Source: a virus (lineage: Duplodnaviria > Caudoviricetes). From it: a stretch of 59,357 bases of DNA. The position numbers were made by a program, and so were the translations under genes. The notes beneath the pieces are model-generated. The model was not told the DNA's origin, searched no databases, and saw only the letters and a list, made by a program, of their open reading frames with translations. Position 1 is the first letter of the stretch. Each line of letters opens with the position of its first letter. Shown one piece after another: positions 8,466 through 58,482 of the stretch. The DNA lies in IMG/VR virus record IMGVR_UViG_3300028840_003776, positions 1-59,357 of that record; one strand, 5' to 3'.

Positions 8466-8510
8466 AGCCGTCTTGTTTCCTAACCCGGTTAGCAAGACGG
8501 CTATTTTTTT
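8466..8510. terminator. Hairpin/terminator at the end of the late operon
   Basis: AGCCGTCTTG...CAAGACGGCT 10-bp stem; the T-tract is on the + strand side. Confidence 0.6.
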
Positions 8511-16020: not shown

Positions 16021-17604
16021 TTAAAAATCTAATCCTAATATATTTAATGGTATAATATTATCTATTAATGAAGTAGCCAGATTATTATATAATGCTTGAT
16101 CAACGATTCCAGCACTGCCAGCATCGCCATTAGCACCATCACCACTGCCGGGGCCAGATGAAGAACCAGCAGAACCACCAGCCCCACCAGCAGCTTGGGC
16201 AGTGCCATTATTTGTATATGATAATGATCTAATCAATAATAAACCACCTGCGCCACCGCCACCACCGCCACCTGATTTGTTAGCCGTAGATCCTCCAGAT
16301 GCATCTCCACCAGCTCCGCCAACTCCCCCATCACATGAGACAGTTACACCAGAGTCAATTGTTATATCATTATTAGAAATTAACATCATAATACCACCAG
16401 CATTACCACCAGCTCCGCCACCACCACGGCGTAAATCAACAACAGTACCATCTGCACCATCACCACCAACTCCCCCATTATTTTTAAAATCTGCTTGGAA
16501 AGTCATATTATAAGCTAAAATAAATATAGCTGGATTATTAGTCACATTTTGTGCCCCTCCAGCTCCATCATTGTCAGCACCAGCACCAGCAATTAAACCA
16601 TCTCCACCATCACCACCAGCAGCAAACATTGAAGCACCGCCACCGCCACCGCCACCTGAATTTTCCTGACCAGCACCTACACCGGCAGTTGCACCAACAC
16701 CACCATAACCAACAGAATAACTCATATGATCTGTTGTCACTAATCCTGCAACCCCTCCAGCGCCACCATTCTGATTAACTCCATTACTGCCATTATTTGC
16801 ATTACTATTAGTGATACTTAATGAGTCTGGTATTGATAAAGCCCCTGAATTTGCGACATAAAAATTTCCTATACATTTTATTATTATGTATCCTCTATTA
16901 ATAACATAAAAACCACTAGAGCTTGTACAATCAATAGTTAATGTGTTATCAATAATTAAATTATTAAAATTATATTTACCTTGATTTAATGTAGTTGCTT
17001 GTTTAATATAATAATTAGGTAAATAATTATCTTCTTTAAGGGTATAAGCATCTCCTACAATTCCTGTATCATCTACATAAATACATCCAAGAGACATTCG
17101 AGTTGTCGCTATACTTGGAAAAATCGGATCAGTAGTAGTATCATCAGTCTCAGAACCAGTAACAATTATTATAGTACTATCACTTTGAGCTGCAATTACA
17201 TCCACTCTATGTTTATTCGCAGCAGCAGCAGAAATAACTCCAGAAGTAGCAGCACTCCATTTTATATCTATACCATTTACTTTTGCTTCCCCCGCTGTAA
17301 CTTCAATTAGATTAGCAGAATTTTTAGATACAACACCACCATATTTTAAATAATTTTTTCTTCCCGGGAATAATGTTTCTTGACCTGAACCAATACTATC
17401 TAGTCGTTCTTTTAAACTTATATGGTATGGCCTTGCTGCAGTTGTTTCCGCATTAGTTGTCCCGATACTTACGGCAGCTAAATCATCTATAACTTCATTA
17501 ATTTTATTAGTTAAATTTGTATAATTATCATCTAATGGAATCGAGTCTGCATCTTCTTGGATACCAATAGGTATTATATCTGCACTGGTTAATTTGCTCG
17601 CCAT
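16021..17604 (-). CDS. Glycine-rich tail fibre protein
   Basis: Multiple GGGGG/GGAGG tracts in the C-terminal half; tail-tip context. Confidence 0.7.
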   Translation of the reverse strand: MASKLTSADIIPIGIQEDADSIPLDDNYTNLTNKINEVIDDLAAVSIGTTNAETTAARPYHISLKERLDSIGSGQETLFPGRKNYLKYGGVVSKNSANLIEVTAGEAKVNGIDIKWSAATSGVISAAAANKHRVDVIAAQSDSTIIIVTGSETDDTTTDPIFPSIATTRMSLGCIYVDDTGIVGDAYTLKEDNYLPNYYIKQATTLNQGKYNFNNLIIDNTLTIDCTSSSGFYVINRGYIIIKCIGNFYVANSGALSIPDSLSITNSNANNGSNGVNQNGGAGGVAGLVTTDHMSYSVGYGGVGATAGVGAGQENSGGGGGGGASMFAAGGDGGDGLIAGAGADNDGAGGAQNVTNNPAIFILAYNMTFQADFKNNGGVGGDGADGTVVDLRRGGGGAGGNAGGIMMLISNNDITIDSGVTVSCDGGVGGAGGDASGGSTANKSGGGGGGGAGGLLLIRSLSYTNNGTAQAAGGAGGSAGSSSGPGSGDGANGDAGSAGIVDQALYNNLATSLIDNIIPLNILGLDF

Positions 17605-30449: not shown

Positions 30450-31802
30450 TCATTTTCTTTTATTTTTTGTTTTTTGATTATATGCAGTAAGAAATTTATG
30501 AGCTGCAGCCATTGTCTTTTCATTCAGTGTTTCATCTTCAGTAACATCAATCTCAACACCAAGCTGACTTGTGATTAAGTTTAATATTTGTTTCGCTTCC
30601 TCATTTTCAACTAAACCAGCAGCCTGCAATGTCATAACTGACTTAGAAAATCTTTCTAATGCTTCTGCTAAATCTGAAGCCTTATCCGGATCAGGTTCAC
30701 TTACTGATATTGTAAATTTTTGATCGATCTCAGAAGACAACATTCCTTTTTGTACAGCCTGCCATAATACATATTTAAACTGTTCATTAAAAATATTTTT
30801 AACATAATTTTTTCGAGCTTTCACATTCTTAAAAAAAGGAATTGACATTACTTTTGCAGTAGCCAAATTGGTTTGCTCACCTATACCATAATACCATTCA
30901 GGCATTCCAGATCCGGCGATAACTTGGCTCTTAATAAGATTATTTAATTCTTTTATATCAGAGCCATTAAGATTAGGTGCTTCGGCTTTCCAAGTTTCTT
31001 TTTCATTGTGAACTCTGGTCGAACCTGGCCGAGGAGGATTCTGTGCAATTTGCTGCTCTTTTCTTTTTAAGTCGCCAAAATCTCCGCCCTGAATAGTTAT
31101 GTCCCATATAAATGATAATAACAATCCTGACCTTTTAGCATTTGCATAAAGATTTTTATCATAAAGTTTTAACCAATCACGCCAGAAATACATATCACTT
31201 AGACCACGAGTTTGAAAAGCAGTTTTATTGATTGGAAAATAAAATATATCTCCAACATATTGACCGCCTACTGGAGACTCAACCCATTCAATAACCTTTA
31301 ATGGTTTATCTATATGATTGAATTTTATTGCAGTTACTCCCTCATCTGTTCCACGTTCTTTATATAATTTTTGAATATGACCGGGATATAGATTAGTCAT
31401 TTTAACTTTTCCGGCAAACTGTGTAACTTCTGGCCATAAAATCATTTCACCCATAAGGGATAGCGTCTTAATTCTCATTTGATAATTAGTTTCCCAGTTA
31501 TTAATAGGGTGCTTCCAATAATTATCAAGTATTTTTTGAACTTCCTCATCTTCTGCAGAATATTGGAAATCATCTCCAGTTACAAAGTCATTAAAAGTTT
31601 CTGTAAATCGATAAGCTAAAGGATTGTTTAGCCATAACTTCTGCATATCTTCGATCATTGTAACCGAATCAATTGGATTAAGGCTGTCTATATTTGTTTG
31701 ACCTAAAGGATAAAAACCAAACATATCAATTCTTTCTCGATTTAAAATATCTTGAGTTGCAGAAGCGATTATACGATTAAAATCATTAGCTGTTACTGGC
31801 AT
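30450..31802 (-). CDS. Portal protein
   Basis: 450 aa, NPLA, GE, RGLSD, AGSGMPEWYYG..TNLATA; upstream of the gp7-like gene. Confidence 0.85.
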   Translation of the reverse strand: MPVTANDFNRIIASATQDILNRERIDMFGFYPLGQTNIDSLNPIDSVTMIEDMQKLWLNNPLAYRFTETFNDFVTGDDFQYSAEDEEVQKILDNYWKHPINNWETNYQMRIKTLSLMGEMILWPEVTQFAGKVKMTNLYPGHIQKLYKERGTDEGVTAIKFNHIDKPLKVIEWVESPVGGQYVGDIFYFPINKTAFQTRGLSDMYFWRDWLKLYDKNLYANAKRSGLLLSFIWDITIQGGDFGDLKRKEQQIAQNPPRPGSTRVHNEKETWKAEAPNLNGSDIKELNNLIKSQVIAGSGMPEWYYGIGEQTNLATAKVMSIPFFKNVKARKNYVKNIFNEQFKYVLWQAVQKGMLSSEIDQKFTISVSEPDPDKASDLAEALERFSKSVMTLQAAGLVENEEAKQILNLITSQLGVEIDVTEDETLNEKTMAAAHKFLTAYNQKTKNKRK

Positions 31803-31826: not shown

Positions 31827-32384
31827 TTATTTTTTCATTGACATTCCAATAGCAAAAATCATAATCAAAGAATAGTAAATCAATGTCTTTGTGTCAATAA
31901 TTTTATAAATATTATAATGCGATAAAAAGATTATATTGAAAAGAAGCCAGAAAAGTAATAAATAATTTTTAGTTATATTAAATGAATTTAACATATTCTT
32001 GAGTTTAATTATAATCCTTTTTATGTCATTTTTCAAGAGCTGTAATTTAGTAATCTGTAAGAAGTTTTTACAATTTTTCTTTCTATTTACTGCCTTACAT
32101 TTGCGATAAATAGGTTGCCTATCATCCTTTAAAACACTTCCACACTCTTCGCAGTAAACTAAATCTCCCTGAGTAATTATACTTTCATTGCCTATATGAT
32201 TTTTTTCGGAAGATATTGAATACCCGCATATATCCCGACCATCTTCACTTTCTTTGCCAATTTGAATTATTTCCTGACTAAATGGAATATAAAACTGGCA
32301 TTCTTTACAATAAATTTTTTTATCTCGTTGTGCTCGTGCCACTATTTGCCTCCGATAATATATTAAAAAATTCTTGCTCCGCAT
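31827..32384 (-). CDS. Cys-rich protein with C-terminal TM helices
   Basis: YCKECQFY, YCEECG, two hydrophobic helices; start uncertain. Confidence 0.45.
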   Translation of the reverse strand: MRSKNFLIYYRRQIVARAQRDKKIYCKECQFYIPFSQEIIQIGKESEDGRDICGYSISSEKNHIGNESIITQGDLVYCEECGSVLKDDRQPIYRKCKAVNRKKNCKNFLQITKLQLLKNDIKRIIIKLKNMLNSFNITKNYLLLFWLLFNIIFLSHYNIYKIIDTKTLIYYSLIMIFAIGMSMKK

Positions 32385-32955
32385 TTATCATTTTCTTTTC
32401 ATCTGTTTTATATTTGAAATCTTTTAAGAACTTTATTATTTTTTTGCCTATATCAATTTGATCATTCTTTTTGTCAATGTTTTTATTAAGACTATCAATT
32501 TGAGCATCTAATGTCTGATGAAAAATATTAAAATCTTTTTTAGAACTTATTCTTTTTTTTACAATTTTGAGCATTCGTTGTTTGCTTTTAAGGCCATCAA
32601 TTTCTTTTTTAAAATTTCTCTCTTGCCTTTGTATTGTCTCTGCCATTACCTTAAAAATATTAGCATACAAGTATTGATCATCTTTCCTTAAAGCATCTAT
32701 AGTTTGATAGAATAAACCGATTAAAATATCATTGAATAAATTTTTAGTATTATCTTTTGCCCTACCATGTGTATCGTAATATTCTTTAGATTCAGGATTG
32801 CTGATTATTGCATAGGCTTCGCTAATATCAGCAAATTTTTTCATATCACCACCTTTATCCGGATGATTTTCTTTTGCCAATTTGCGATAAGCAGATTTAA
32901 TTTCCTGCTGAGTAGCATTTTTATTAAGACCTAATATTCTATAAATATCAGTCAA
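32320..32955 (-). CDS. J-domain (DnaJ-type) co-chaperone
   Basis: IYRILG..KNAT..EIKSAYRKLAKENHPDKGGD...ISEAY..YD; HPD motif intact; TTG start with GAGGGG RBS. Confidence 0.92.
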   Translation of the reverse strand: MTDIYRILGLNKNATQQEIKSAYRKLAKENHPDKGGDMKKFADISEAYAIISNPESKEYYDTHGRAKDNTKNLFNDILIGLFYQTIDALRKDDQYLYANIFKVMAETIQRQERNFKKEIDGLKSKQRMLKIVKKRISSKKDFNIFHQTLDAQIDSLNKNIDKKNDQIDIGKKIIKFLKDFKYKTDEKKMINAEQEFFNILSEANSGTSTTR

Positions 32956-33003
32956 TTGAATTATATCCCCTCACTTATTTTATATATCTTCCTTTAAATC
33001 AAA

Positions 33004-33153
33004 GGTGGAGCTACCAAGGATTTGCACCTTGGATAATAGACTTTAAGAAGTTATCAACTTCTCAGAGTCGCCTTTGGCTACTATATTAAACCCTGATTAA
33101 AAGGTTTATGTCTATCTACACTCAACAGAGTCTACCTTTTCCTCCATAGCTCC
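33004..33153 (-). ncRNA. tRNA-like RNA with expanded central domain
   Basis: Acceptor stem GGAGCTA/TAGCTCC followed by ACC, Leu-type D arm, T arm CCAAGG-TGCAAAT-CCTTGG, ~95 nt central region with three hairpins. Confidence 0.7.
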
Positions 33154-33159
33154 ATAAAA

Positions 33160-33765
33160 AAGGCCTCGGTCAGACCCTATTGTTATCTACCCGATGCAAA
33201 TGCATCCTGCCGAATAAGATAGATAAACCAAACGGATGGCACAAATTTTCAATAGTTATACCATCCGCTCATTTCCATTCAAGGAGAACAAAAATCCTTA
33301 AATCAGTGGGACGGCGGATTAAATATGCAAACACAACCGTCCCATATTAGTTAAACCAATGCTTACTTGACTACTGATATCATCTTTCAGCGTTTTTCGG
33401 CAATTACAATTCCTTAGAGGAGTTCCGGATTGCTACTCCTAATCTACTGCATACTACCGTCCACTACTTTTATTTTGCGCTTAGTGGTCATGCGACTTGT
33501 TTATAAACCAAAGCAGTCAATACCGGTCTGTACAGGTTGGGGATAGACATGACCAGAGATATTGACTGCATTTTTATATATGCTTGAAATAAGCCAAAAC
33601 AGCCAGCACCGGCCTTCATCAACAGAACGGAATACCGGGGAATGGCTGGCTGTAAAATATTTGAAGTTAGTTATTGTTACCATGAAAAGGAAACCAAAAG
33701 GGTAGTTAGCATAAGACTAAAAACACTAACTACCCACGACATTATTTACCTTTAGGAGGATTTTA
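33160..33765 (-). ncRNA. Structured non-coding hairpin array
   Basis: At least seven inverted-repeat stems and five copies of a TTGGYTT motif; no credible ORF. Confidence 0.6.
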
Positions 33766-33769
33766 ATAT

Positions 33770-34201
33770 CTATTCTACGCAGACCTTTGAGATCCAACCT
33801 AACTTGGTTTTATACCAAACAATATTTTTATCTATAATTTTAATAGCTGCTCCGCCTTTTACTGTGCCATCAAGTGTATCTTCTGCCTTTCGAGGTTCAG
33901 TTCTTAAGGCTGCTCCTTGATGTAGTACAACGCCATCACCAACATATTTAGAATACATCCATCCTTTATCGCCTACACGGGTTGAAGTACTTTTCTTATC
34001 TTTACCTTTTATGACTTCGATATAAATATAATCAGCCCATGCTTCGAGAACTTCCAGTTCCGTACCGGGTTTCGCAGAATCGATAATCTCAGATTTTGCA
34101 CTATGATTTTTTCGAACATTTGCCCATTCTTTAATTGTAATAGTCTCAGCTGCAAAAATTACTGATACCATAATTAATGTTAACATTAAAAGTTTTTTCA
34201 T
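33770..34201 (-). CDS. Secreted SH3b-domain protein
   Basis: Signal peptide (..VIFA), ANVRKNHS..SEII, GWMYSKYV, LRTEP, WYKTKLGWIS. Confidence 0.75.
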   Translation of the reverse strand: MKKLLMLTLIMVSVIFAAETITIKEWANVRKNHSAKSEIIDSAKPGTELEVLEAWADYIYIEVIKGKDKKSTSTRVGDKGWMYSKYVGDGVVLHQGAALRTEPRKAEDTLDGTVKGGAAIKIIDKNIVWYKTKLGWISKVCVE

Positions 34202-34229: not shown

Positions 34230-34258
34230 ATTATATAATACTTACATACTGATGTCAA
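34230..34258 (-). promoter_or_regulatory. Sigma70-type promoter for the SH3/ncRNA/J-domain insert
   Basis: TTGACA-17 nt-TATAAT immediately after the terL stop. Confidence 0.85.
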
Positions 34259-35752
34259 TTAATATCGATCATCATCCAATAAATAATCAATATTATTAGT
34301 ACCAAAGGATTCTTGTATAATAGGTCCACTCCCTGATAATTCAGTCAATGCCCATACCAAAGCGTCAAGCCTGTTAGGTGATCTTCCTTGACCTGCATAT
34401 GTAGTTAATTCTTCCTCTAATTTATAAAAATTTCCTACGTGATGTACTAATCCCTGAGAATACAAGGCAGCAATTGGTTCAGCCCTTATTAATTTTCCTC
34501 TTGAAGCATTTACATCTTTATAAAAAACCTTCTCCCCGCTTGGTACAGTTCTAATTGTTCTTTCAACCATTGCACCACCATAATTTTTTTCTGCAACCAT
34601 TACATTACATTTATATTTTTCATAATTCTCTACTGCTTTTTTCGCCCATTGCTCAGGGGAGCCGTTTAAAGTTGCATCTTCAAGAACATAATAATGCTCC
34701 TCTTTTCTCGCACAAACCAAGATACCTATTGCATCAGCGGTACTGTCTTCTGCTCCATCATCTCCGGAAGGATCTACGCCAATTACTATCTCAGTCACAT
34801 CTTTTGGCAATTCCATCACTCGATATTTATCGATAATATCCTCATCCCATAAAGCACCTTCGATTTTATATTTTTCCGGATCTTGCATATATTGACACCA
34901 GTAAGTCCTTTTATGGCTCATTAATGATTGCCTATGTTCTTCGGAATGTTTAGCTATCCAAAGCCAACCGTTAGGTAAATTGTGTTTAATTGGGATACCA
35001 AATTTATATTCAGGGTTATATTCTTGGTCACGATCAATAAATACAGGAAGATTTAAGTGATGCCATTTTTCACCGCTTCCGCCCCTCAATAAATACCCTG
35101 TTAAGTCGTTTTTATGTATTCTTTGGTGTATCACAATTATTGGCACATTTTCATTTGCTAATCGTGACTTAATAGTTTCATTAAATCGATTATTTACCTT
35201 CTTTCTCTCTTCATAAAGAGCATCGTCTGGCTTAACCGGGTCGTCAATAATTAATGCTCCGCTAAATCCCTTATCCATGTGACCAGCTCTGAAACCTGTT
35301 ACCTGCCCTCCTGCAGAAGTTGCATATACCCCACCTCCCTGTAAAGTCCACCATTTTTTCTTAGAATCTGAATCTTCCTTAATTTCGATGTTCCACATCG
35401 CTTTATATATGCCTGATTTAATGATATTCCTTGCTACAGAAGAGTTTTCGAGGGCAAGGCTATCAGAATACGATAAATGCAGGAAACGTGCCTTAGCGTT
35501 CAAGGATAAGCCTCGTGCTATAAAATTTATAACAGCCAGCTCAGTTTTCGTATATCCGGGAGGAACGTTGATAATTAATCGCTTAATATCGCCATTTATA
35601 ACCCTTTCTAATGTATCTTGTATTAACTTATGATGGGGCGATATAATCATTTTACTGCTATATCTCTGTTTAAAGAAATAACGGGCAAAATAAAGGCCGT
35701 CAATTTCACATTCTAACTTTCTGACAGCATTCATTTCTTCAACAGTCGTCAT
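34259..35752 (-). CDS. terL: Terminase large subunit
   Basis: Walker A NVPPGYTKT, Walker B LIIDDP, YMQDP, nuclease IGVDPSG, EKNYGG, SPNRLDALVWA. Confidence 0.95.
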   Translation of the reverse strand: MTTVEEMNAVRKLECEIDGLYFARYFFKQRYSSKMIISPHHKLIQDTLERVINGDIKRLIINVPPGYTKTELAVINFIARGLSLNAKARFLHLSYSDSLALENSSVARNIIKSGIYKAMWNIEIKEDSDSKKKWWTLQGGGVYATSAGGQVTGFRAGHMDKGFSGALIIDDPVKPDDALYEERKKVNNRFNETIKSRLANENVPIIVIHQRIHKNDLTGYLLRGGSGEKWHHLNLPVFIDRDQEYNPEYKFGIPIKHNLPNGWLWIAKHSEEHRQSLMSHKRTYWCQYMQDPEKYKIEGALWDEDIIDKYRVMELPKDVTEIVIGVDPSGDDGAEDSTADAIGILVCARKEEHYYVLEDATLNGSPEQWAKKAVENYEKYKCNVMVAEKNYGGAMVERTIRTVPSGEKVFYKDVNASRGKLIRAEPIAALYSQGLVHHVGNFYKLEEELTTYAGQGRSPNRLDALVWALTELSGSGPIIQESFGTNNIDYLLDDDRY

Positions 35753-36242
35753 GTTTAATCATCTCCTCCCTTATCCTCATATAATCATCTTTATTAATAT
35801 TGCACACTACTGAGGCAACTTTAGCTTCAATATTCGTTACAAATGAATGATTAAATTTCCCGATCAATTCGATATATTCTTTTCTCGTTTTAAAATCAAC
35901 TTGATTTTCTTTGTGATACTCATACCTCTCATTTCCGTATTTATTATTACCGATCTTCTCCTGATGCACTTTAGTCACAAAAGCGTTAGTGCCTTCATGG
36001 AGTTTCTTTGCTATATACTCTTCAGTTAATCCGGCCTTTTCAAGGGCTAATTGAAGCGAATTTCGTGGTTTCCCGTGGACTTTACGATATAAATCACCTG
36101 ATTGAACAGTTGCTTCAGCATACCCAGCCTGCCTGCCTGCATCGGCTATTGTCATTGTGGGATTCTTTGCAAGGAGGTCGAAGAATTTGGCCTCTCTTGG
36201 GGTCAATTTCCGCTTCTTCTTTTCTTTATTGAATAATGCCAT
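35739..36242 (-). CDS. terS: Terminase small subunit
   Basis: LTPREAKF..A.RQAGYA HTH; overlaps the terL start. Confidence 0.8.
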   Translation of the reverse strand: MALFNKEKKKRKLTPREAKFFDLLAKNPTMTIADAGRQAGYAEATVQSGDLYRKVHGKPRNSLQLALEKAGLTEEYIAKKLHEGTNAFVTKVHQEKIGNNKYGNERYEYHKENQVDFKTRKEYIELIGKFNHSFVTNIEAKVASVVCNINKDDYMRIREEMIKHDDC

Positions 36243-36245: not shown

Positions 36246-36848
36246 TTAAATCTGTGTAAATTTACATGACTTATACTGCTCACATATTTCTTTTATCTTA
36301 GGTACCATTTTCCAATCTTTTTTATCAACTGTTATAGCGATTTTAATTATATTATCGTCCTTATCAGATCCGGCACCTGTGTCTTTGAATTGTTTCCAGT
36401 CAAAATTCATAAGTGCAATCTGCCTATCAAGCTCTTCCTGTGAATAAGGCATAGTTACTTCAAGGTCTTTTATATCAATTTCTTTCTGTAAATCAGATAT
36501 AATCTCAGCTAATTTTATATTGTCAGTCTCAAATTTAGTCTCATTTGTCTCAATAGCAATTCTTTTAGCCTGCAGCTCTGAAATCTCCCCGAAGTCATAC
36601 GCCATTACTTTGGCCATATTGAGCTTATTAAATACATCAAGCCTATGGTTTCCGTTTAATACTTCCCATTCATATTTGCCTTTTATTCTTCTGATAAGGA
36701 TATTTTCGACCTGACCGTTCTTTTTTATCTGATTAAGGAGCTTTTGGGACAGTTCCTCATTTTCTGTCTTATAATTCCAAGCAGCTTTTTTTAAAAATTT
36801 AATCTCTATTTCTTTCCATTCTCCCATACGATTCCTCTCTTTGTCCAT
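36246..36848 (-). CDS. ParB/Srx N-terminal domain protein
   Basis: WNYK, IKKNGQVENILIR, VLNGNHRL; true start probably MGEWKE. Confidence 0.85.
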   Translation of the reverse strand: MDKERNRMGEWKEIEIKFLKKAAWNYKTENEELSQKLLNQIKKNGQVENILIRRIKGKYEWEVLNGNHRLDVFNKLNMAKVMAYDFGEISELQAKRIAIETNETKFETDNIKLAEIISDLQKEIDIKDLEVTMPYSQEELDRQIALMNFDWKQFKDTGAGSDKDDNIIKIAITVDKKDWKMVPKIKEICEQYKSCKFTQI

Positions 36849-37654
36849 AAGTCGGTATAATACTTTTCCATCAATGAAAATTGTTCTGCGCTATAAATTG
36901 CTGTATAACCCTCAAAATTACCCTGTAAGCTAACCTGTTTTAATAACTTAACTGGCAGCCTCCTCACAACAGCTTCTTTATCTACATGGGTTGCGATTCG
37001 TTTTAATCTACCATTCTTGAACTCGAATACTTGTCCGAATCTCTCCGAAGATACCCAGCTTGAGCTATCAGAGGAGAAAAAAGGGTACTTATTGAACATA
37101 TCATCCTTTGTTACGCCCAAAGCGTGTACTTTGACCTTATCTATCTGCTTCGTATCAAGCAAGTATCTAAAAAATCCATTCAGATAATTTTTATACCTTA
37201 CATCATCTGAAGTCTTAAAATTTGCCGTCCAAGATATCGCTATATAAGGATATATATCAATAAAGGCTTGGATTTGCTGCAGACTCATTTTATCAGATAC
37301 GATTCCTATAGTCGGTATACCTTCTGAGGTTAATGCTTTAAAATTATCTAATTGTTCTTCATAAGTGCCTTGATCAAGGGTGAAAAAATAACTACAAGAA
37401 TCAATATTCGCTTTACAAAAGTCTATATATTTATCCAAGGGCAATATTTCATCCTTCTGCCTTGCAGTAAATACTCCGCTATCAATAACAATTTTTTTAT
37501 TTATTTTACTACATAAGTCCTTAATGATACTAAATCTATCACTCTGCTTTGACTTAATATAATAATATGAGATTAAAATATCATTCTTTACTTTAGTATT
37601 TTTGAGCAAAAATTCAGTTCTTTTATCTAGATTTGTTGCCAGAAATATCTTCAT
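36806..37654 (-). CDS. dpdA: tRNA-guanine transglycosylase-like DNA base-exchange enzyme (DpdA-like)
   Basis: IDSGVFT, FTLD, VHALG and SSDSSSW TGT-fold motifs; deazaguanine pathway context. Confidence 0.75.
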   Translation of the reverse strand: MKIFLATNLDKRTEFLLKNTKVKNDILISYYYIKSKQSDRFSIIKDLCSKINKKIVIDSGVFTARQKDEILPLDKYIDFCKANIDSCSYFFTLDQGTYEEQLDNFKALTSEGIPTIGIVSDKMSLQQIQAFIDIYPYIAISWTANFKTSDDVRYKNYLNGFFRYLLDTKQIDKVKVHALGVTKDDMFNKYPFFSSDSSSWVSSERFGQVFEFKNGRLKRIATHVDKEAVVRRLPVKLLKQVSLQGNFEGYTAIYSAEQFSLMEKYYTDLWTKRGIVWENGKK

Positions 37655-38403
37655 ACTGAATTATACTCCTGAAGTACTGAATTGCTTAATCTTAATAACC
37701 TTAATGTCCTTGAAACTAATTCTTTAGTCGTCTTTTGCAGGTTATAAGTTTTCTTCTGCGTATCTAAATGAAAAGCTAATGCCTTGCTGGCCATATAAAC
37801 CTTTTTATCGTTTTCTTTTAAAATTTGCCCTGCGATCCAATCTTCCCCTAATGTAGTTTCTTTCTCTACTTCAGGGAATATATCAATATCTAATTTCTTT
37901 TTATTAAATAAAGTGTTACCTAAATCAAGATGTATCCTTTCAAGTGAAAAATCAGTCTCATATATTGCAAAAGGATTATTGCTTTTTTCTTTTGTCGGCT
38001 CAATCGAATAATCTTTATAACTATGTCTGTTAGAAACATCGACTTTACAACCTACAACCGCAGCACATCTCCTGTACTTAATTGTTTTCACTAATTGATA
38101 TAGGCAAACAGGCATATAATATACATCACTATTTAAAAACCAAATATAATCTGACTCAACACTAATCATTTGTCTGTACATATTAACCATACCAGTGTCT
38201 TTGTCAATTCTTATCTCAACCTTAATAAAGTTTGCTCTAAGTAAGGCGATCACTTGTTCAAAATAAAATTCAGAAATATTTAATATATTTCCCTGTACAA
38301 AAATAACTACTTTTTTAGGTTTTAATATCTGCCCTGCAAGTGAAGATAGAGTAAGTAAGGTTTCTGCCCCTACCGATCGCAATCCGACTACTGCTGTTGC
38401 CAT
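37651..38403 (-). CDS. GT-A fold glycosyltransferase (GT2-like)
   Basis: YIWFLNSDV (degenerate DxD), GEDW, AFHL. Confidence 0.65.
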   Translation of the reverse strand: MATAVVGLRSVGAETLLTLSSLAGQILKPKKVVIFVQGNILNISEFYFEQVIALLRANFIKVEIRIDKDTGMVNMYRQMISVESDYIWFLNSDVYYMPVCLYQLVKTIKYRRCAAVVGCKVDVSNRHSYKDYSIEPTKEKSNNPFAIYETDFSLERIHLDLGNTLFNKKKLDIDIFPEVEKETTLGEDWIAGQILKENDKKVYMASKALAFHLDTQKKTYNLQKTTKELVSRTLRLLRLSNSVLQEYNSV

Positions 38404-39470
38404 TAAATTAGCCCCATTAATTGTAAATATCGCTCAACTGACTTATCATAATACTCAGGAATTTTTAATAATTCTTTATCGAAAATAGAGTGCCTATCAA
38501 TAACCTCAGCTGCACTTTCTGCACTTCTTGGCTCATATAAATACTCTGCTGGTAAGTATTCAGGGAAACTACGATACTTTGGGTAAATAGGAATGCAATG
38601 ATAAGTCAAACTTTCAAGTAATGTCCAACTAAGCCAATCTTGGTAAGCTGTATTTAACTGATACTTTGACTTCATCAATTCATTGTAGTATTGTTTTTTT
38701 GTAAGACCGGTTTTAATTGTGATAATACCTTTCTTTTCCGCAGCTTTAAATTCCTTAACAATAATTGGCCTATTTGATCGCAATTCCTTAGCAGAGGTCG
38801 TAATAACAAATTCATACCTAGATTTAAGCATTTCTGCGATTCTAAGCACTAGCATAGGATTTTTCTCGGAGTCTAATCTTGATGTATATATAATTTGATT
38901 TTTCTTTGCTGAGACGTTCCTAGGGGCAAATTTGAGCAACTCCTGAAGATTATAGGGCAATCCTCCGAAAAATACGTTTTTTAGACCAGCTTCTGTACAT
39001 AAGTCGATTAAATACTCACTTGTACAAAAAACGCCTGACATATAATTAGATTGACCTATTTCGTAATGCCTCATCCAATTTTTCATTTTATATGTAAAGT
39101 CATACTTGTCAACTGACTGGGCATGGAGCATTGCATAAATTTTGATACTAATCCCCAGTTGACTACATATATAAGGAATTGCCTCAATGCCGGGTGTCCA
39201 AAAATCATCAAGGTATAATATATCCCCATCTTTAATTTTTCCTGACTTAATCAATTTAACTACTTTTGCAATCTGAGTCAGCGAATAATAACTCCGATTA
39301 TAACAATCTAATACTTGACCATTTCTAATATCTTTCCCTAATGACTCTCCCTCTACTCTCATAAACTTAATTTTATATTTTTTGAGCTTACTTTCAAACC
39401 ATCCATTTTTTGAACTTAATAATATAGTGTACCGCTCCTTATAAGGCTCCAAAGGCAAATAAACTAACAT
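38403..39470 (-). CDS. GT-B fold glycosyltransferase
   Basis: DFWTPG, LHAQSVD, SRLDSEKNP, LLES...P..RSFPE. Confidence 0.8.
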   Translation of the reverse strand: MLVYLPLEPYKERYTILLSSKNGWFESKLKKYKIKFMRVEGESLGKDIRNGQVLDCYNRSYYSLTQIAKVVKLIKSGKIKDGDILYLDDFWTPGIEAIPYICSQLGISIKIYAMLHAQSVDKYDFTYKMKNWMRHYEIGQSNYMSGVFCTSEYLIDLCTEAGLKNVFFGGLPYNLQELLKFAPRNVSAKKNQIIYTSRLDSEKNPMLVLRIAEMLKSRYEFVITTSAKELRSNRPIIVKEFKAAEKKGIITIKTGLTKKQYYNELMKSKYQLNTAYQDWLSWTLLESLTYHCIPIYPKYRSFPEYLPAEYLYEPRSAESAAEVIDRHSIFDKELLKIPEYYDKSVERYLQLMGLI

Positions 39471-39772
39471 ACTTCTGCTCCATTTTCATTATCTTCAAGT
39501 ACTGAGCAATAAGATAGTCTAAATTTATTAAACAAATTACTTGCAATCAATTCACAACTTGCTGTATCCCAAGAATTACTTTTTAAATATTCAAGTATTT
39601 TTCTCTTCAAACTTATTATCTCAATCTGTCTCTCTGTATGCTCAACTTTTTTCTTACAAGTAATATAAAATATATGTCTATGAGGATATTTCAAATACTC
39701 TACTTCAGGCAAATTGCATTCTGGCCATCTATGTATAGCCTCAAATTGTAACTTCACTATAATATTGATCAT
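39464..39772 (-). CDS. QueD-like T-fold paralogue (DpdL-like)
   Basis: EAIHRWP, LKYPHRHIF (LxxxHRHxF), SCELIA, EDNENGA. Confidence 0.7.
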   Translation of the reverse strand: MINIIVKLQFEAIHRWPECNLPEVEYLKYPHRHIFYITCKKKVEHTERQIEIISLKRKILEYLKSNSWDTASCELIASNLFNKFRLSYCSVLEDNENGAEVC

Positions 39773-40647
39773 TTTACTAATCCTATGAACTCTGTCCTTG
39801 CTTCTTTCTTTTCAAGGAATACGCCCTTTAAGCTAGATGTTACCATTTTACTTTTTTGTTTTTCTACACCTCTTGAAGTCATACAAAAATGCTGAGCCTC
39901 AAGGATACATCCAGCTCCTTTGGCATTAAGCGATTCCATTATAAAACATGTAATTTGCTCCCCGATTCTTTCTTGAATTTGGAGGCGACGAGAAAACACC
40001 TCAAGCAAACGGGCAAGTTTTGATACTCCGAGTACTTTGTCTTTCGGAATATATGCAATATGAGCCTTCCCAAAAAACGGTAACATATGATGTTCACAAG
40101 TAGAATAAAATTCAATATCCTTAAGCAACACCATTTGATTATATGTTTCCTTATCGAAAACTTTAAGTAATTTTTTAGGGTCTTCATTGTATCCTCCATA
40201 TAATTTTTGCCAAGATTTTCTTACTCTCTCAGGCGTTTCTTTTAAACCTTCTCGATTAGGATTTTCTCCGATAAATTCAATCTGCCTAATAACTGTATCT
40301 TCAATATCGTTTTCTTTTTCCCAAGGGAATTTTATCCAACCCTCAATCTTTTCTGCATAATACGTGACTTCATTTTCTTTGTTATTCTTTACTAATAAAA
40401 CTGCTTTATCATTATCATAGTTAGACAAAGTTTTACCGCTATCAATAATATCATCAACTATTAAACTATGTGACTTTAAATAATTGGATATAGGAATCTG
40501 TAGAATATTACTTAATACAACTGCTACAGGATAACCTCCCATTGGAACAGGCCATATCTCAGAATATTTTTTACCTGAGTCAATTATAGTACCTGCTAAT
40601 TTTACTGTATGGAGATCAATTTCTGTATTTGTAAGCTTAACTTGCAT
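39769..40647 (-). CDS. folE: Phosphoribosyltransferase-GTP cyclohydrolase I fusion
   Basis: N-terminal VPMGG, LIVDDIIDSGKT, WIKFPWE; C-terminal REGLKETPERV, STCEHHMLPF, RRLQIQE, HFCMTSRGV. Confidence 0.93.
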   Translation of the reverse strand: MQVKLTNTEIDLHTVKLAGTIIDSGKKYSEIWPVPMGGYPVAVVLSNILQIPISNYLKSHSLIVDDIIDSGKTLSNYDNDKAVLLVKNNKENEVTYYAEKIEGWIKFPWEKENDIEDTVIRQIEFIGENPNREGLKETPERVRKSWQKLYGGYNEDPKKLLKVFDKETYNQMVLLKDIEFYSTCEHHMLPFFGKAHIAYIPKDKVLGVSKLARLLEVFSRRLQIQERIGEQITCFIMESLNAKGAGCILEAQHFCMTSRGVEKQKSKMVTSSLKGVFLEKKEARTEFIGLVK

Positions 40648-41180
40648 TCTGGATACTCCTTAATTATCCTAACACATTTATCTATATATTCTTTTTTATT
40701 GCTTTCTGGTTGAAGATAAATATCAAAAGCATACTTAAAAGAATCCATTATTCTATCTATGTTAAATTTTTCTCCAACTATATACTTAACTTCATTTGTA
40801 AAAAAAGGATAATAAGAATAATCATTTTCTTTTTTCGGCGAACAGGTTATCCAGTCGGCTATTATTTTTTGTGTTCCATTAGTTTCAACTTGTACATAAT
40901 AACCTCTTTCTTTTAATTTAAGAATAAATTGATTTATATTAGGCACAATTCCCGGCTCGCCTCCAGTTAATACAATATGAGAATATTGCTCATATTTTTT
41001 AATTTCTTTTATAATATCGCCAAATGTCATTAATTTGAAAGTTTGATGTTTAGTATCACAAAAAGGACAACTTAAATTGCAGCCTGAAAATCTTATAAAG
41101 ATTACTGCTTGACCAGTATAAAATCCTTCCCCTTGGATTGATATGAAAATTTCATTAATTTTATAATTCATAGATCGCAA
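40602..41180 (-). CDS. queE: 7-carboxy-7-deazaguanine synthase (radical SAM)
   Basis: EIFISIQGEG, RFSGCNLSCPFCDT, LTGGEP, VETNGT, CSPK, LSLQIQK. Confidence 0.93.
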   Translation of the reverse strand: MRSMNYKINEIFISIQGEGFYTGQAVIFIRFSGCNLSCPFCDTKHQTFKLMTFGDIIKEIKKYEQYSHIVLTGGEPGIVPNINQFILKLKERGYYVQVETNGTQKIIADWITCSPKKENDYSYYPFFTNEVKYIVGEKFNIDRIMDSFKYAFDIYLQPESNKKEYIDKCVRIIKEYPECKLSLQIQKLISIQ

Positions 41181-42829: not shown

Positions 42830-43507
42830 TCATTTTTTATCCTCCAGCATTTTTAAAAATAAATCGCTGGTTGAAGTCACTCCATAATAATTGCTGGCTT
42901 CAGCACATAATTCTTTAACTTTAACATAATCTTCCCGGGTATATTCAAGAATGATTTTTGCTAATTTAGTACTTGCTGCCCGAGAAGGTCGGGGATCGGC
43001 CTTTGGATTATCTTCTTTAATCTCTTTCGCTGCCAATTCCTGATCCATTTTTTTTGCTATATGACTAATATCAATATTCATTGTCTCCTGAATATTAGTT
43101 ATATTATCCTGCAAGTTAGGAAAAATTTCCTTTAATTCTGCATGAAGTTTTTTGTCATCAATATCGTTTGATTTTAAAGAATTATCAATTACCCGTAATC
43201 TTTTTTGCTTATCTTCTGGCAAATCTGAACAGTCATCAACTTCAATAGTCATATCTTTATTAATTTGCATGAGGGCAGACCATCTGGAATGACCATATAC
43301 AATTATATTGTCTGAACCAATACCGATTTTTTGTCTATATCCAAACTCTTCAATTGATCGCTTAATTTTTTCTATTTGTTCCTCAGAATGGATCACATAA
43401 TTTTTCTCATATGGGACTAAGTCACATACTTTTATTTCTTTAGTTTTTCCGTGTTTAATTTCTTTCATAATTATCTCCCGTAATTTTTTTAATAATTTTT
43501 TAATCAT
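42830..43507 (-). CDS. ParB/Srx N-terminal domain protein
   Basis: LVPYEKN...H..EQI..SIEEFG, IVYGHSRW.A, LRVIDN. Confidence 0.85.
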   Translation of the reverse strand: MIKKLLKKLREIIMKEIKHGKTKEIKVCDLVPYEKNYVIHSEEQIEKIKRSIEEFGYRQKIGIGSDNIIVYGHSRWSALMQINKDMTIEVDDCSDLPEDKQKRLRVIDNSLKSNDIDDKKLHAELKEIFPNLQDNITNIQETMNIDISHIAKKMDQELAAKEIKEDNPKADPRPSRAASTKLAKIILEYTREDYVKVKELCAEASNYYGVTSTSDLFLKMLEDKK

Positions 43508-45629: not shown

Positions 45630-46376
45630 TCAAATTATACTCCCTAATTGTTCGCTATATTTAAATATATTACTAAAAACATTTTTCCCTCGTAAAATCA
45701 GCGGCATTGTCATATTACGAATATTATCAGCATATTGAGAATGATTCATCCCTATTGCTATGGTATTGGTTTTAAAAAAAGGTTCTATAGGAGAGTTCTG
45801 CCACCAGACGTTTTGCTGAAAAGGAAATTGAATTGGCAAAAATATTTCCGGATCAACGAATCTCATATGCTTAGGGTTTTCATAGTGCATTTGACCAACC
45901 ATATGTTCACCAAACCAGACGCCTTGATGTCTCGGGTAATGAGTTTGATTAGGTGCAGCTCGTAATTGTTTATTAATCCAATCAAGACATATTCTCAAAA
46001 ATTCACTGCCTTGATTAGCAAAAAAATAACCGTTTAATATTCTACCTGTCCTTCGCCATCTCATACAAATAATATCTGCTTCTTGAAGATTTTCAAAAGT
46101 TGAATTCATATCTTTTAACATTACCGTATCTGCATCCATCCAGCAACCGCCGTACTTATAAAGTAAAGCGACTCTTAATACGTCAATACGCTGAGATATT
46201 GGCCGTAAGTTTGCCCAATTATCAGCAAGGTCTACACCTTTAATATAATCTCTGACATTGCCTTGAGTAATAAAATGACTTTCAACACCACATCGTTTCT
46301 CAATTGATTTTAAGCAGTAATTAATATAAGGGTATCGAGTCCCTTCCCAGTAATAAAAAATCTTTTTAGGTATCAT
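45630..46376 (-). CDS. Glycosyltransferase, GT32/OCH1-like
   Basis: IPKKIFYYW, DVLRVALLYKYGGCWMDAD. Confidence 0.88.
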   Translation of the reverse strand: MIPKKIFYYWEGTRYPYINYCLKSIEKRCGVESHFITQGNVRDYIKGVDLADNWANLRPISQRIDVLRVALLYKYGGCWMDADTVMLKDMNSTFENLQEADIICMRWRRTGRILNGYFFANQGSEFLRICLDWINKQLRAAPNQTHYPRHQGVWFGEHMVGQMHYENPKHMRFVDPEIFLPIQFPFQQNVWWQNSPIEPFFKTNTIAIGMNHSQYADNIRNMTMPLILRGKNVFSNIFKYSEQLGSII

Positions 46377-47503
46377 ATCAATTTAACATTCATAGGATCA
46401 GATTCAATTGTATTTTTGTATAAATCAATCCAACTATAACTTGTACACCGAATGCAATTATTAACATTTTTATTAATTTCTTTTAGCATTGCAATGTGTT
46501 CTGCTCCTCCCCATTTACGCCTAATTGCCTCAAGCCCTTCGTCAATAAAATTACCTAGATTCATATTAGGTTTATAAACAGACCATCTACGATCTGGACA
46601 GGGTGCAACCATGCCATTTGCCATCCAAGTTGAACCAAGAGGAGTTGTCATACATCTTTCAATTACTCGCTTTTTAAAATCAGGAGTAAACTTTTCACGA
46701 ATACCATATACATTAAACTCACGTTCTCTTTCTAATCGTAGACCTAATTTAATTTGTTTCTCGACTTCTTCAACATCAATTTTTTTTGATTCTTCTTCGG
46801 GCAATTCACAAGGTCTTATTTGAAAATGCCTTACCCCGATTTTACTTGCTAATTCAATACCAGAATAAATCGCCTTATAATTATATGGTGCAATTAAATA
46901 CTTGTATCCTATATCGTGATTAAGGTTATATTCTTTACAATAGTCATACATATATTTAATATTATTTATTATTTTATCAAAGGTGCCTTTAGGGGTATTA
47001 GAAAATGCCTGATGAGATTCAGAATCCCCGGCATTAATTGACCAACCAGACCAGACACAAGTTCTTGCTACCTCTTCAAGTAGATGTTTATTAAAATATG
47101 CTCCATTGCTTACGAAACCTACTTCAATATTCCATCTGTTACAAAGTCGTAAAAAATCAATTAAATCCCTATGAGGATACATTACCGGATCGCTGTGATG
47201 CCCGGCAAGGCAAATTGACTTCACTCCCCATTTATTATAGAACTCTGGGATTTGAAATAAAATATCTCTCGGGATATATGCTTCCTCGCTTTGATCTTCA
47301 AGATTACTCATACAAGGTTTACAATTAAATCCTTTGCCGCATAATTTTTTGTCCTGAGTACCTTGACAAATATCAAGAGCAATATTAACCGGGGGAGCAA
47401 AATTTCCAGTTTTAATTTTTTTCATTCTCTCATACCAACAAAGTACTTTAAATTTTTGAAAAGGGCCATACTCATCAGTTAATATATTTGTATTTTCGCT
47501 CAT
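46373..47503 (-). CDS. Radical SAM/SPASM protein
   Basis: C-x5-C-x2-C cluster, VSNG, SINAG, C-terminal C..P..NG.V.PC, LGN, CIRC. Confidence 0.8.
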   Translation of the reverse strand: MSENTNILTDEYGPFQKFKVLCWYERMKKIKTGNFAPPVNIALDICQGTQDKKLCGKGFNCKPCMSNLEDQSEEAYIPRDILFQIPEFYNKWGVKSICLAGHHSDPVMYPHRDLIDFLRLCNRWNIEVGFVSNGAYFNKHLLEEVARTCVWSGWSINAGDSESHQAFSNTPKGTFDKIINNIKYMYDYCKEYNLNHDIGYKYLIAPYNYKAIYSGIELASKIGVRHFQIRPCELPEEESKKIDVEEVEKQIKLGLRLEREREFNVYGIREKFTPDFKKRVIERCMTTPLGSTWMANGMVAPCPDRRWSVYKPNMNLGNFIDEGLEAIRRKWGGAEHIAMLKEINKNVNNCIRCTSYSWIDLYKNTIESDPMNVKLI

Positions 47504-48834: not shown

Positions 48835-49376
48835 GATCCATCTTCATATCTTTTATCATAACCGCCTAATTCTTTTTCAATTACATCACTTACAACTAAA
48901 TCTCCAACATCGTGACCACATATGAAACCATCAGTTTTAATTTTATTTTTCCAGTGTGATAAGTCATAAGTGACACCTTCCCGAGTGTGATCGCCATCTA
49001 TATAAATTGCATCAACTTTATCTTGAAAAGAATCATAAAATTCCTTACTAGTGCATTTAAACATTCTGACATTTGGGTAAGGCATTAGTCTTTTAGTTGC
49101 TATTTTTTCAGCTTGAATTAAATTGTCTTTTGTTTCTTGAGTTTTCAAATATCCGTCTGCATAAGGATCGATAGTTATAACTTCTCTGCAAGTCAACGCA
49201 AATAATACTGCTGTCACCCCTTCATAGGTTCCTATTTGGATTACTCTGAATTCAGGAGAAAAATTTTCTTTAATCAACTGATATAATCCTCTGGAAAAAT
49301 TACCTTCCTCATTTGCGTGATCTGCCATTCGAGGCATATTAATTATTATTTCTATTTTTTTATTTATCATTTTCAA
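48813..49376 (-). CDS. Class I SAM methyltransferase (Methyltransf_24-like)
   Basis: IGTYEG, IDPY, IYIDGDHT, GFICGHD. Confidence 0.85.
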   Translation of the reverse strand: MKMINKKIEIIINMPRMADHANEEGNFSRGLYQLIKENFSPEFRVIQIGTYEGVTAVLFALTCREVITIDPYADGYLKTQETKDNLIQAEKIATKRLMPYPNVRMFKCTSKEFYDSFQDKVDAIYIDGDHTREGVTYDLSHWKNKIKTDGFICGHDVGDLVVSDVIEKELGGYDKRYEDGSWVKQIV

Positions 49377-50214
49377 ATTGTCTGAAGAAATTATAATAGA
49401 TATAATCTTCTACACTCCCATATAATTTGCTAGCTACCTCAAAATTTTCTTTAACTGAAGCCATCATATTATTATATAGCTCTTCATTAAGACCATCAAG
49501 TATTTTTTCTAATTGATCAATCTCTCGCCATAAAATCATTCCCTTAGCATTAAAGTATTGTTTTATGAAACCATTATTCCACATAATAGGAATTGTGCCA
49601 GTTAAAAAGCAATCAAGCAATTTGTCAGTCCAATAATCTTCAATAATTTCATTCTCAATTACAATAGCAAATCGATGTTCTTTGAATGGTTCCAGTTGAT
49701 AGTCATAATATTTGTAAGCTCTGCCATATATGGAATTTATTTTATCTTTATATTTGGCAATTACTTGATGCCTTAATCTATGCCCAACTGTCCAATCTTT
49801 TTTGCTTGCGATAATTTGAACATTTTTTTTCTTAGAATAAATTTTCCAATCCTTTGCATAAATATAAGAACCGCCCGGTGTCCACCAAATTACTTTCCAA
49901 TTATTTAATTTAAATCGTTGAGAATATTTGTGATCAAAACAAAATATATAATCAAATTTAGAACCATATTTAATTAATAAATCCTCATAACCATATTTAT
50001 GAATTGAAGCTGGCTCTAATGGCCATGCTACTTTAATAGCACCATTAAATTTTGGATCATTAACTTTCTCATAACATCTTTCTGTGAAACAAATTATTTT
50101 ACATCTCTCTGGAGTATCCCTGATCCATTCAATTTTTTTTGGAGGTTCGTATCCAGTATAATGACTAGGATTTTTTATATGTTCAAATTCTAAATCAACT
50201 AAACCTATTTTCAT
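49360..50214 (-). CDS. GT10 fucosyltransferase-like protein
   Basis: EP, GHRLR, FAIVIEN...YWTDKLLDCF..GTIPI. Confidence 0.8.
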   Translation of the reverse strand: MKIGLVDLEFEHIKNPSHYTGYEPPKKIEWIRDTPERCKIICFTERCYEKVNDPKFNGAIKVAWPLEPASIHKYGYEDLLIKYGSKFDYIFCFDHKYSQRFKLNNWKVIWWTPGGSYIYAKDWKIYSKKKNVQIIASKKDWTVGHRLRHQVIAKYKDKINSIYGRAYKYYDYQLEPFKEHRFAIVIENEIIEDYWTDKLLDCFLTGTIPIMWNNGFIKQYFNAKGMILWREIDQLEKILDGLNEELYNNMMASVKENFEVASKLYGSVEDYIYYNFFRQFENDK

Positions 50215-52791: not shown

Positions 52792-53039
52792 TGCTCCTCC
52801 GGTTTTTTAATTGTATAACATTCTACGCCTTGATCATCATTGCCGACATTTTCACACATTCCATTCTCGCATTCTTTGCAGTTCGCATCTTTTTTTAAAT
52901 AGGCTGGTTGACAATCCATTATATTATCACAACATGGAGCCATATTATTTATTCCACATCCACAAGGAACATCTGAGCAACAAAGCCCATCATAATTATT
53001 TTTTTCTAAATATTCTTTTATGATTTCAATTACTGTCAT
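52788..53039 (-). CDS. Small Cys-rich protein
   Basis: YDGLCC...CGC....APCC...DCQPAY. Confidence 0.55.
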   Translation of the reverse strand: MTVIEIIKEYLEKNNYDGLCCSDVPCGCGINNMAPCCDNIMDCQPAYLKKDANCKECENGMCENVGNDDQGVECYTIKKPEEQ

Positions 53040-58393: not shown

Positions 58394-58482
58394 TGATTTC
58401 CTCCCATTATTTTTTTGCCCTTCACTATATTGATGATTGAGGGCGATCCGGCCGGAACGCCCTCAATACAGGAAGGAAACTA

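Follow-up and report, generated by a model that had tools for sequence, protein, structure and literature searches.

Tandem paralogous hairpin-plus-tail modules in the terL-portal interval of an orphan marine phage, read as candidate variants of intrinsic terminators and processing sites

What might a row of hairpins, most of them followed by the same short U-rich motif, be doing in an untranslated stretch between the terL and portal genes of a phage? The question is raised by IMG/VR virus record IMGVR_UViG_3300028840_003776, the genome of an orphan, AT-rich, marine phage, whose full 59,357 base pairs (bp), terminal repeats included, were analyzed here and are called the window. Its minus strand carries nearly all open reading frames (ORFs) of at least 100 amino acids (aa), and on that strand an ORF-free gap separates a gene for an SH3_3-domain protein from a gene for a J-domain protein. 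The initial annotation had given this ORF-free stretch about 600 nucleotides (nt) and had seen in it a polycistronic small-RNA cassette built from sequence-unrelated stems; the stretch is indeed free of ORFs, while its true size is 814 nt (32956-33769). We find that the array it contains is a real, statistically robust set of paralogous hairpin-plus-tail modules, and that it is most likely an unusual form of tandem intrinsic terminator together with processing sites.

The structural signal is the firmest part of the case. Each of the eight stems originally proposed was folded as minus-strand RNA and compared with 200 dinucleotide shuffles; six fold better than their shuffled controls, with z scores between -2.5 and -5.4, and the other two, at 33461-33487 (z -0.87, 37/200 shuffles as good) and 33418-33440 (z -0.50, 59/200), fold no better than chance. 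Folded whole, the 606 nt first singled out reach -181 kcal/mol on the minus strand (z -3.65, 0/20 shuffles as good) and -148 kcal/mol on the plus strand (z -3.75). Since these two z scores are alike, they cannot pick the strand; gene orientation and the extension of stems by G-U pairs favor the minus strand. The gap also stands out in composition, its G+C content of 0.38 being the highest among 24 gaps listed (the others 0.21-0.37) in a window that ranges from about 0.27 to 0.40. Of the window's perfect stems that reach 8 bp and 4 G:C pairs, 10 in all, four fall within 33307-33735, and six of the genome's 25 most stable 100-nt windows within 33008-33657. The description of the locus as real, non-coding and structure-rich on the transcribed strand is thus borne out.

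Followed in the direction of the minus strand, the array opens 34 nt past the stop codon of the SH3 gene with module A (33688..33737), whose stem at 33700-33735 has 10 bp, or 13 with G-U pairs, a loop of 10-16 nt and the tail UUUUGGUUU at 33691-33699 (z -5.24, 0/200 shuffles as good). Module B (33589..33653) consists of a 9-bp outer stem at 33599-33653, an inner CCGG stem, a loop of 20-22 nt and the tail UUUUGGCUUAU (z -2.46, 6/200). In module C (33503..33569) the stem at 33513-33569 has a 10-bp outer helix, 12 bp with U-G pairs, a 6-bp inner helix and a 22-nt loop, followed by the tail UUUGGUUUAU (z -4.45, 0/200). There follows segment D (33345..33504), a 160-nt weakly structured spacer (z -1.11, 24/200) with a tail-like AUUGGUUUAA at 33352-33361 that has no abutting stem of 6 bp or more; it is possibly a decayed module. 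Module F (33297..33344) returns to the pattern with an 8-bp stem at 33307-33344, a 22-nt loop and a degenerate tail, ACUGAUUUAA (z -3.45, 1/200), and module E (33223..33268) with a stem at 33233-33267 of 7 bp, up to 14-15 bp with G-U pairs, a loop of 11-21 nt and, once more, the tail UUUGGUUUAU (z -5.40, 0/200). In hairpin G (33183..33226) the 5' arm shares sequence with the tail of E; the hairpin contains an inner GAUGC/GCAUC stem and is without a U-rich tail (z -3.86, 1/200). Just beyond it, at 33160..33178 and also on the minus strand, comes a canonical intrinsic-terminator-like site with a 7-pair stem, a 5-nt loop and UUUUUU (z -1.93 when folded alone). The long terminal loops ascribed to four of the stems are there as well, at 20-22 nt in B, C, F and E.

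What ties these hairpins together is the tail. Counted over both strands of the window, TTTGGTTT occurs 12 times against a shuffle mean of 7.0, a number that 6 of 100 shuffles reach, so that its genome-wide excess is not striking. Its recurrence in the array was nevertheless rightly noticed: three of the 12 copies lie in the 600 nt, together with TTTGGCTT at 33591-33598 and a weaker ATTGGTTT at 33353-33360, and four sites, the tails of A, B, C and E, do follow directly on a stem, as had been claimed. If an abutting stem is defined as one with 7 bp or more, 3 or more of them G:C, such a stem is found at 4 of the 15 TTTGGYTT sites in the window, all four in the array (A, B, C and E), compared with 4 of 156 sites in the 189 phage or prophage loci from elsewhere (1,822,458 bases) that served for comparison; folding all the other motif sites in the window gave no abutting G+C-rich stem. 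The association of stem and motif is therefore real and local. In A, B, C and E the tail starts 0-1 nt past the base of the G+C-rich stem and opens with 3-4 U. Set side by side, the six versions read TTTTGGTTTCC in A, TTTTGGCTTAT in B, CTTTGGTTTAT in C, CATTGGTTTAA in D, GTTTGGTTTAT in E and ACTGATTTAAG in F; all six retain GG or GA, and the consensus is a single-stranded YUUUGGYUUAU. This shared tail is more conserved than either the stems or the loops, in agreement with the first description. A role of the tail as a sigma-54 or sigma-70 promoter was considered and rejected on reading the sequence and on a promoter scan, no -12/-10 element lying at the right distance.

The stems themselves, which had been called sequence-unrelated, turn out to be kin. 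B and C are paralogues, as are E and F, and sequence comparison shows the array to consist of diverged tandem copies of one module, a family to which A probably also belongs. In a MAFFT alignment the 3' halves of B and C match at 20 of 26 positions (counted by eye), all six differences being transitions. With the register fixed by the tail, five of the nine outer pairs are identical between B and C, four are changed on both sides and none is broken; between E and F five of eight pairs are the same and three are changed on both sides; between A and E four of seven are the same, with one one-sided and two two-sided changes. The loops have diverged, with 8 of 20 positions common to B and C and 13 of 21 to E and F. 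Because the modules arose by duplication, their equal loop lengths can be understood as inherited and give no evidence for a measured 'guide'.

This pair-preserving change was quantified in a four-unit alignment of E, F, B and C, from which A was excluded since MAFFT failed to set five modules in one register. All 36 of its 36 cells pair, and in seven of nine pairs the change is two-sided. Covariation scores 1.11, where shuffles give 0.46 and none of 500 scores as high; sliding the partner columns brings pairing down to 25-58%, and the covariation signal collapses. What is informative in the alignment is that columns are shared and that the tail hardly varies. The same four units served to build a covariance model (R1), which found, as its best match in the window beyond its training units and their reverse complements, module A, with 16.3 bits at an E value of 0.45; in 100 other loci (1,117,389 bases) it had no match at an E value of 1 or below.

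How, then, might such an array be transcribed, and to what end? Directly past the stop of terL lies, on the minus strand at 34230..34258, a sigma-70-type promoter, TTGACA-17-TATAAT, perfect at 12 of 12 positions, which is the likely start of a transcript containing the SH3 gene and the array. Within the array and the gap the promoter scan found no sigma-70-like promoter of at least 9/12 on the minus strand, so that the units are probably co-transcribed, and from upstream only. By the usual standard an intrinsic terminator is a G+C-rich stem followed directly, on the transcribed strand, by a U-rich tract, with a loop of 3-8 nt and an unbroken U-run. The first half of this description suits A, B, C and E, whose stems of 7-13 bp contain 5-6 G:C pairs and whose tails have 5-6 U in the first 8 nt. 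Given these G+C-closed stems followed by UUU(U)GGYUU, and given that A lies so close past the stop of a gene with a perfect promoter, the initial verdict of 'not simple terminators' was too strong; module A is probably the terminator of the SH3 gene, to judge from its sequence and position.

The tails also resemble cleavage sites. In PMC5222698 the core consensus of RNase E is given as RN|WUU, with U at +2, and all six tails keep R at -2 and UU at +2/+3: the alignment reads UGG|UUU in A, C, D and E, UGA|UUU in F and UGG|CUU, with C at +1, in B. The GA|UUU of module F equals the ArcZ site quoted in that paper. The tails are unpaired in minimum-free-energy folds, as such a site calls for, and the motif is one that carries little information. 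Since all six fit the consensus, a processing signal in the tail, as first proposed, is plausible.

We therefore put forward, as a leading but still tentative reading that stops somewhat short of probable, that the array is a set of tandem, leaky, intrinsic-terminator-like 3'-end modules whose tails, by the consensus in PMC5222698, would also suit RNase E. The hairpins, the link between stem and tail, the paralogy with its pair-preserving changes, the promoter and the lack of promoters inside the array are observed; that the array is transcribed, that it ends transcripts, that these are cut and that the resulting RNAs have a function is what we infer. The 814-nt stretch would be the long 3' untranslated region of a cargo ('moron') transcription unit set between terL and portal, in which each module, made of a G+C-closed stem, a 16-37-nt top and the single-stranded tail, would form RNA 3' ends. 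A would end most transcripts from the perfect promoter before the SH3 gene, B, C and E would serve as back-up copies that catch read-through, and the canonical terminator at 33160-33178 would close the unit, so that the portal and head genes would be shielded from a strong, probably constitutive cargo promoter. Read-through RNA, including any long late transcript, may be cut in the exposed tails, where UGG|UUUA fits RN|WUU; with the hairpins shielding the 3' ends so made, hairpin-capped RNAs of about 50-100 nt would result.

The known systems nearest to this picture are intrinsic and tandem fail-safe terminators and the moron layout of promoter, gene and terminator. The array shares with them a transcribed-strand layout in which a G+C-closed stem leads directly into a U-rich tail, a first unit just past the stop of a strong-promoter gene, and several units in a row; it differs in its tops of 16-37 nt (versus 3-8), its GG-broken U-run, its five or six copies and two stems that are without a U tail, and its terminator role is predicted from sequence. 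Small RNAs released by RNase E, either derived from 3' untranslated regions or of the ArcZ and RprA kind, are comparable (PMC5222698) in having single-stranded RN|WUU tails and sites beside protective hairpins in a long 3' untranslated region. In those systems RNase E makes the 5' end and there is one terminator, whereas in the array every hairpin has a putative site of its own on its 3' side.

Several points weigh against the terminator-like reading. Textbook terminators have loops of 3-8 nt, and the loops of the modules are far longer: their tops measure 16-37 nt, and their U-run is split by GG. A terminator scan with a loop limit of 8 accordingly returned in the array only the site at 33160-33178 and the inner hairpin of B. 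The conserved GG is unexplained by termination alone, and F and G hold good stems without a U-rich tail. Nor are the modules simply the local style of terminator, as the phage's two clear canonical terminators, at 33160-33178 and about 2330-2357, each have a loop of 5 nt and a U-run without a break. A series of five or six terminators seems to exceed the apparent need for insulation, and the presence of RNase E in the host is assumed. As to the alignment, its complete pairing is partly by construction, the units having been selected as hairpins, and quasi-palindrome correction at the DNA level could mimic compensatory change.

The long tops, the unexplained GG, the tailless F and G and the different style of the canonical terminators keep alive, as an unlikely contender, the polycistronic small-RNA cassette of the initial annotation. 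There RNase E would cut a precursor at the tail, or else a protein of phage or host origin would do so with UUUGGYUUAU as its handle, and the 20-22-nt loops would act as antisense seeds, guides or decoys toward host RNAs or defense proteins. Such a design would account for a tail stricter than termination needs, with GG or GA in six of six versions, for stems kept by two-sided changes while loops diverge, and for the persistence of the F and G stems without a terminator-like tail; the array's own canonical terminator at its end suggests transcription through it, its place in a cargo island behind a very strong promoter suits an expressed product, and the tails fit the RN|WUU of PMC5222698. Within the phage, the loops lend the idea no support. 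Tested against the phage itself, they gave four 13-mer matches compared with 4.35 in shuffles, and in duplex energy against 108 phage start regions the fraction of shuffled loops as good was 0.10-0.97, so that their complementarity to the phage genome and to these regions is not above chance. Their equal lengths follow from duplication, the neighboring SH3, J-domain and membrane zinc-ribbon proteins include no recognizable RNA-binding protein, and there is no second example in the 80 IMG/VR loci examined that carry two tails at similar spacing or in the 1.1 Mb searched with R1. Of the original interpretation, the structured non-coding locus and the plausible processing signal are supported, and the guide or decoy loops are weakened. 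More doubtful still is the specific form in which this would be an undescribed phage small-RNA cassette of hairpins with the 3' handle UUUGGYUUAU and diversifying 20-22-nt loops, perhaps with the downstream element X as a tRNA-like partner processed by RNase P; at the same low grade, taken jointly, we place the details that the handle is read by a nuclease or binding protein and that each loop addresses a different host RNA or defense factor.

What hangs on the choice differs accordingly. If the modules are only back-up terminators, the locus is an example of a phage insulating its late genes from a strongly expressed cargo gene, and of terminator hairpins that can duplicate and drift yet keep their pairing. 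If the GG tail is truly a handle and the loops confer specificity, it would be a new phage way to encode several small RNAs per unit, and the handle/loop cassette would be worth seeking in other AT-rich marine phages. Either way, the locus offers a compact set of five paralogous hairpins with which to ask which 3' sequence decides between termination, read-through and cleavage.

The readings that remain, at the level of DNA, of a sponge or of one large RNA, are each less likely than the small-RNA cassette. The first is brought in by the position of the array. The gene order on the minus strand starts with a probable small terminase gene (35739-36242), followed by terL (34259-35752; PHROG 38, E value 2.5e-90), the promoter, and the SH3 gene (33770..34201), which has the ribosome-binding site TAGGAG and encodes 143 aa with an N-terminal signal peptide (Pfam SH3_3, E value 2.2e-12, and its translation); this is a moron-like cargo gene with a secreted product, as its sequence indicates. 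Beyond the gap, its downstream border is the gene for the 211-aa J-domain protein (32320..32955; Pfam DnaJ, E value 1.7e-19, and its translation). In three relatives with 64-67% terL identity (L002, L083 and L084) terL runs directly into the next large gene; as these closest terL relatives were found without an interval after terL, the SH3 gene, the gap and the J-domain gene can be taken as an inserted cargo island. Improbably, in our estimate, the hairpins could thus be the leftover boundaries of cassettes at a recombination hot spot, or single-stranded-DNA hairpins, with the tail as recombination microhomology; T4-type phages, with their promoter-stem-loop cassettes, are the comparison. The locus is an insertion relative to those three relatives, the direct repeats of the gap amount to no more than its 10-12-nt tails, and template switching can keep inverted repeats perfect without selection on RNA. 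Yet the tails are not promoter-like, there being no suitably placed -10 element and no minus-strand promoter of at least 9/12 in the gap; several stems gain length from G-U pairs that can form only in the minus-strand RNA; the minus-strand fold is the more stable by the energies given above, though with like z scores; and all modules are oriented with transcription.

Slightly less probable is a sponge, in which the modules would titrate Hfq, ProQ or RNase E, factors that bind terminator hairpins bearing U tails, as CsrB and RsmZ titrate CsrA. Repeated modules with one shared single-stranded motif behind a strong promoter are what such a sponge would look like, and the hairpin-plus-U-tail layout is that of Hfq and ProQ binding modules. 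Like CsrB, RsmY and RsmZ, the array is a series of divergent hairpins with one short motif; in those RNAs, however, GGA stands in loops, while here UUUGGYUU stands in the linkers. The CsrA-defining GGA is not enriched, occurring 14 times versus 11.2 expected (21% of shuffles reach 14) and only once of these 14 in a module loop, and the csrB and rsm families had no Rfam match. The sponge is further weakened if A terminates efficiently, since only one module would then be left per transcript.

The least probable of the readings, a single large ornate RNA of about 0.8 kb that would be a counterpart of GOLLD or ROOL, depends on what lies beyond the canonical terminator. Element X (33004..33153, minus strand), which begins 6 nt past the U-run of that site, is a 150-nt closed multi-helix RNA domain with an 8-bp terminal stem around four hairpins (-51.6 kcal/mol, z -4.75, 0/200 shuffles as good). 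At its 3' end it looks like a T arm, with a 6-bp stem CCAAGG/CCTTGG and a 7-nt loop TGCAAAT, and then ACC behind an acceptor strand; a loose acceptor-plus-T-arm pattern turns up 1.45 times in each random genome and is not rare by chance. Element X is not recognized as a transfer RNA (tRNA) or transfer-messenger RNA (tmRNA): ARAGORN reported 0 genes, and the Rfam tRNA and tmRNA models had no match at an E value of 10 or below on 191 nt. With relaxed settings the only ARAGORN calls contained introns of 250-300 nt and were set aside as implausible. The 23-nt T-arm-plus-acceptor string had 0 matches in species genomes. A stem strand of element X, GAUAGACAU (33108-33116, minus strand), is the perfect complement of AUGUCUAUC, the first 9 nt of the module C loop (33529-33550); about one such pair is expected by chance in 814 nt, and the match is probably a coincidence.

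An untranslated block of 814 nt that is raised in G+C, dense in hairpins and part of a phage from an aquatic metagenome, and that contains a domain with a tRNA-like end, would suit such a large RNA, and GOLLD loci often lie beside or around tRNAs. It has no Rfam match to GOLLD, ROOL or any other family, however, its predicted long-range pairs have negligible ensemble frequency, segment D is unstructured, a terminator-like site splits the block, and there are no homologues for a covariation test. A further comparison is the stable-RNA cluster of a large phage, the tRNA region of T4 with its species 1 and 2 RNAs, with which the locus shares small structured RNAs arranged head to tail, probably in one precursor, and one tRNA-like end; it differs in being without a tRNA gene and in that its modules are simple hairpins.

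The initial annotation did not recognize the family, and searches against known elements agree with this. Rfam (release 15) had 0 matches at the gathering score across the whole window; at an E value of 10 or below it returned only chance-level matches of 10-22 bits versus thresholds of 42-55, and separate scans of the element X stretch and of segment D gave nothing relevant at that limit. The array is likewise not a CRISPR array, for which near-identical direct repeats of 24-48 nt at regular spacing would be expected: Tandem Repeats Finder gave 0 rows, and the direct repeats are only the 10-12-nt tails and weak two-copy families. It shares with CRISPR arrays, RNA anti-CRISPR solitary repeats and ToxI-type repeats the presence of repeated units in a phage non-coding region; unlike them it is without near-identical direct repeats or tandem periodicity, is without a nearby cas or toxin gene, and has its variable part inside the hairpin loop, not between repeats. 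Integron attC sites were considered and rejected on reading the sequence, the conserved motif lying outside the stem and no R'/R'' core matching. As for coding capacity, the longest minus-strand ORF in the gap, 60 aa at 33501-33683, runs through hairpins B and C and had no tblastn match in 50,697 phage records; by blastn the gap had no match in these records or in 72,556 plasmids.

Relatives of the phage were sought as well. The searches gave 307 terL relatives in IMG/VR, 158 in metagenome contigs and 28 in species genomes, the last being proteobacterial prophages with only 50-61% identity, so that terL hints, loosely and by sequence likeness, at a proteobacterial link. In IMG/VR, searches with the portal, J-domain and SH3 proteins returned no close relative, nor was one of the portal protein found in species genomes, and the sequences searched contain no homologous region or close phage relative. 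In IMG/VR the two-tail pattern occurs in at least 115 stretches; among 80 loci examined, with 93 matches, stems of at least 7 bp stand at both tails in three matches (two loci), all repeated or AT-rich and unlike the array. A pattern for the B/C family had one IMG/VR match, inside an ORF and in opposite sense, which we judged to be chance. In sequencing runs an identical contig appears in two DNA runs, from a sediment and a seawater metagenome, which may be the source of this DNA; no RNA run with the sequence was listed, and neither variants nor diverged relatives turned up in four runs compared at 80% likeness. Another contig, of 21.8 kb, has two short AT-rich matches over a ribosome-binding site and an A/T run, which are uninformative.

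The window holds four perfect 12/12 sigma-70 promoters, all on the minus strand, and the phage has strong Shine-Dalgarno sites as well as consensus -35/-10 promoters. Besides the one before the SH3 gene (34258-34230), they lie at 8280-8252, before the next minus-strand ORF of at least 100 aa (7628-7978), at 3155-3127, before a 217-aa ORF (2403-3056), and at 54044-54016, before a family-8 glycosyltransferase gene (53026-53832). From their sequence arrangement the four units look like self-contained cargo cassettes. The gene at 2403-3056 ends in a canonical hairpin and U-run at about 2330-2357, and we take it that promoter-gene-terminator cassettes exist in the phage.

On the far side of the gap, the J-domain protein has a lysine-rich C-terminal half, and its gene is followed, with a 65-nt overlap and on the same strand, by one for a cysteine-rich membrane protein of 185 aa with a zinc ribbon and two predicted membrane helices. 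These two genes (31827-32955) form an odd pair between terL and portal. Next come the portal gene (30450-31802) and a MuF-like head protein gene, again on the minus strand.

Elsewhere on this strand, genes of a 7-deazaguanine pathway lie at 36806-37654, 39769-40647 and 40602-41180 and encode a DpdA-like protein resembling queuine tRNA-ribosyltransferase, an N-terminally extended GTP cyclohydrolase and a QueE-like radical SAM protein; two ParB-like genes adjoin them (36246-36848 and 42830-43507). This gene content suggests that the phage DNA is modified. Glycosyltransferase-like genes are unusually many (minus strand; 37651-39470, 45630-47503, 49360-50214 and 53026-53832), representing families 2, 1, 10 and 8 and Caps_synth, with a radical SAM gene and methyltransferases alongside; judged by these families, the set could serve host-surface modification or DNA hypermodification.

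Three further structural features lie outside the gap. The genome's most stable 100-nt window, at -45 kcal/mol, falls within 16100-16600 (minus strand), where GGTGGC/GGTGGT runs lie in a 527-aa ORF (16021-17604); this signal is that of a glycine-rich repeat protein, not of an RNA element. A G+C-rich inverted repeat of 10 bp with 6 G:C pairs lies at 58436-58467, just upstream of a replication-initiator (O-like) gene (57725-58393). Another of 10 bp with 6 G:C pairs, at 8466-8502, is followed by a plus-strand T-run and is terminator-like in the opposite orientation.

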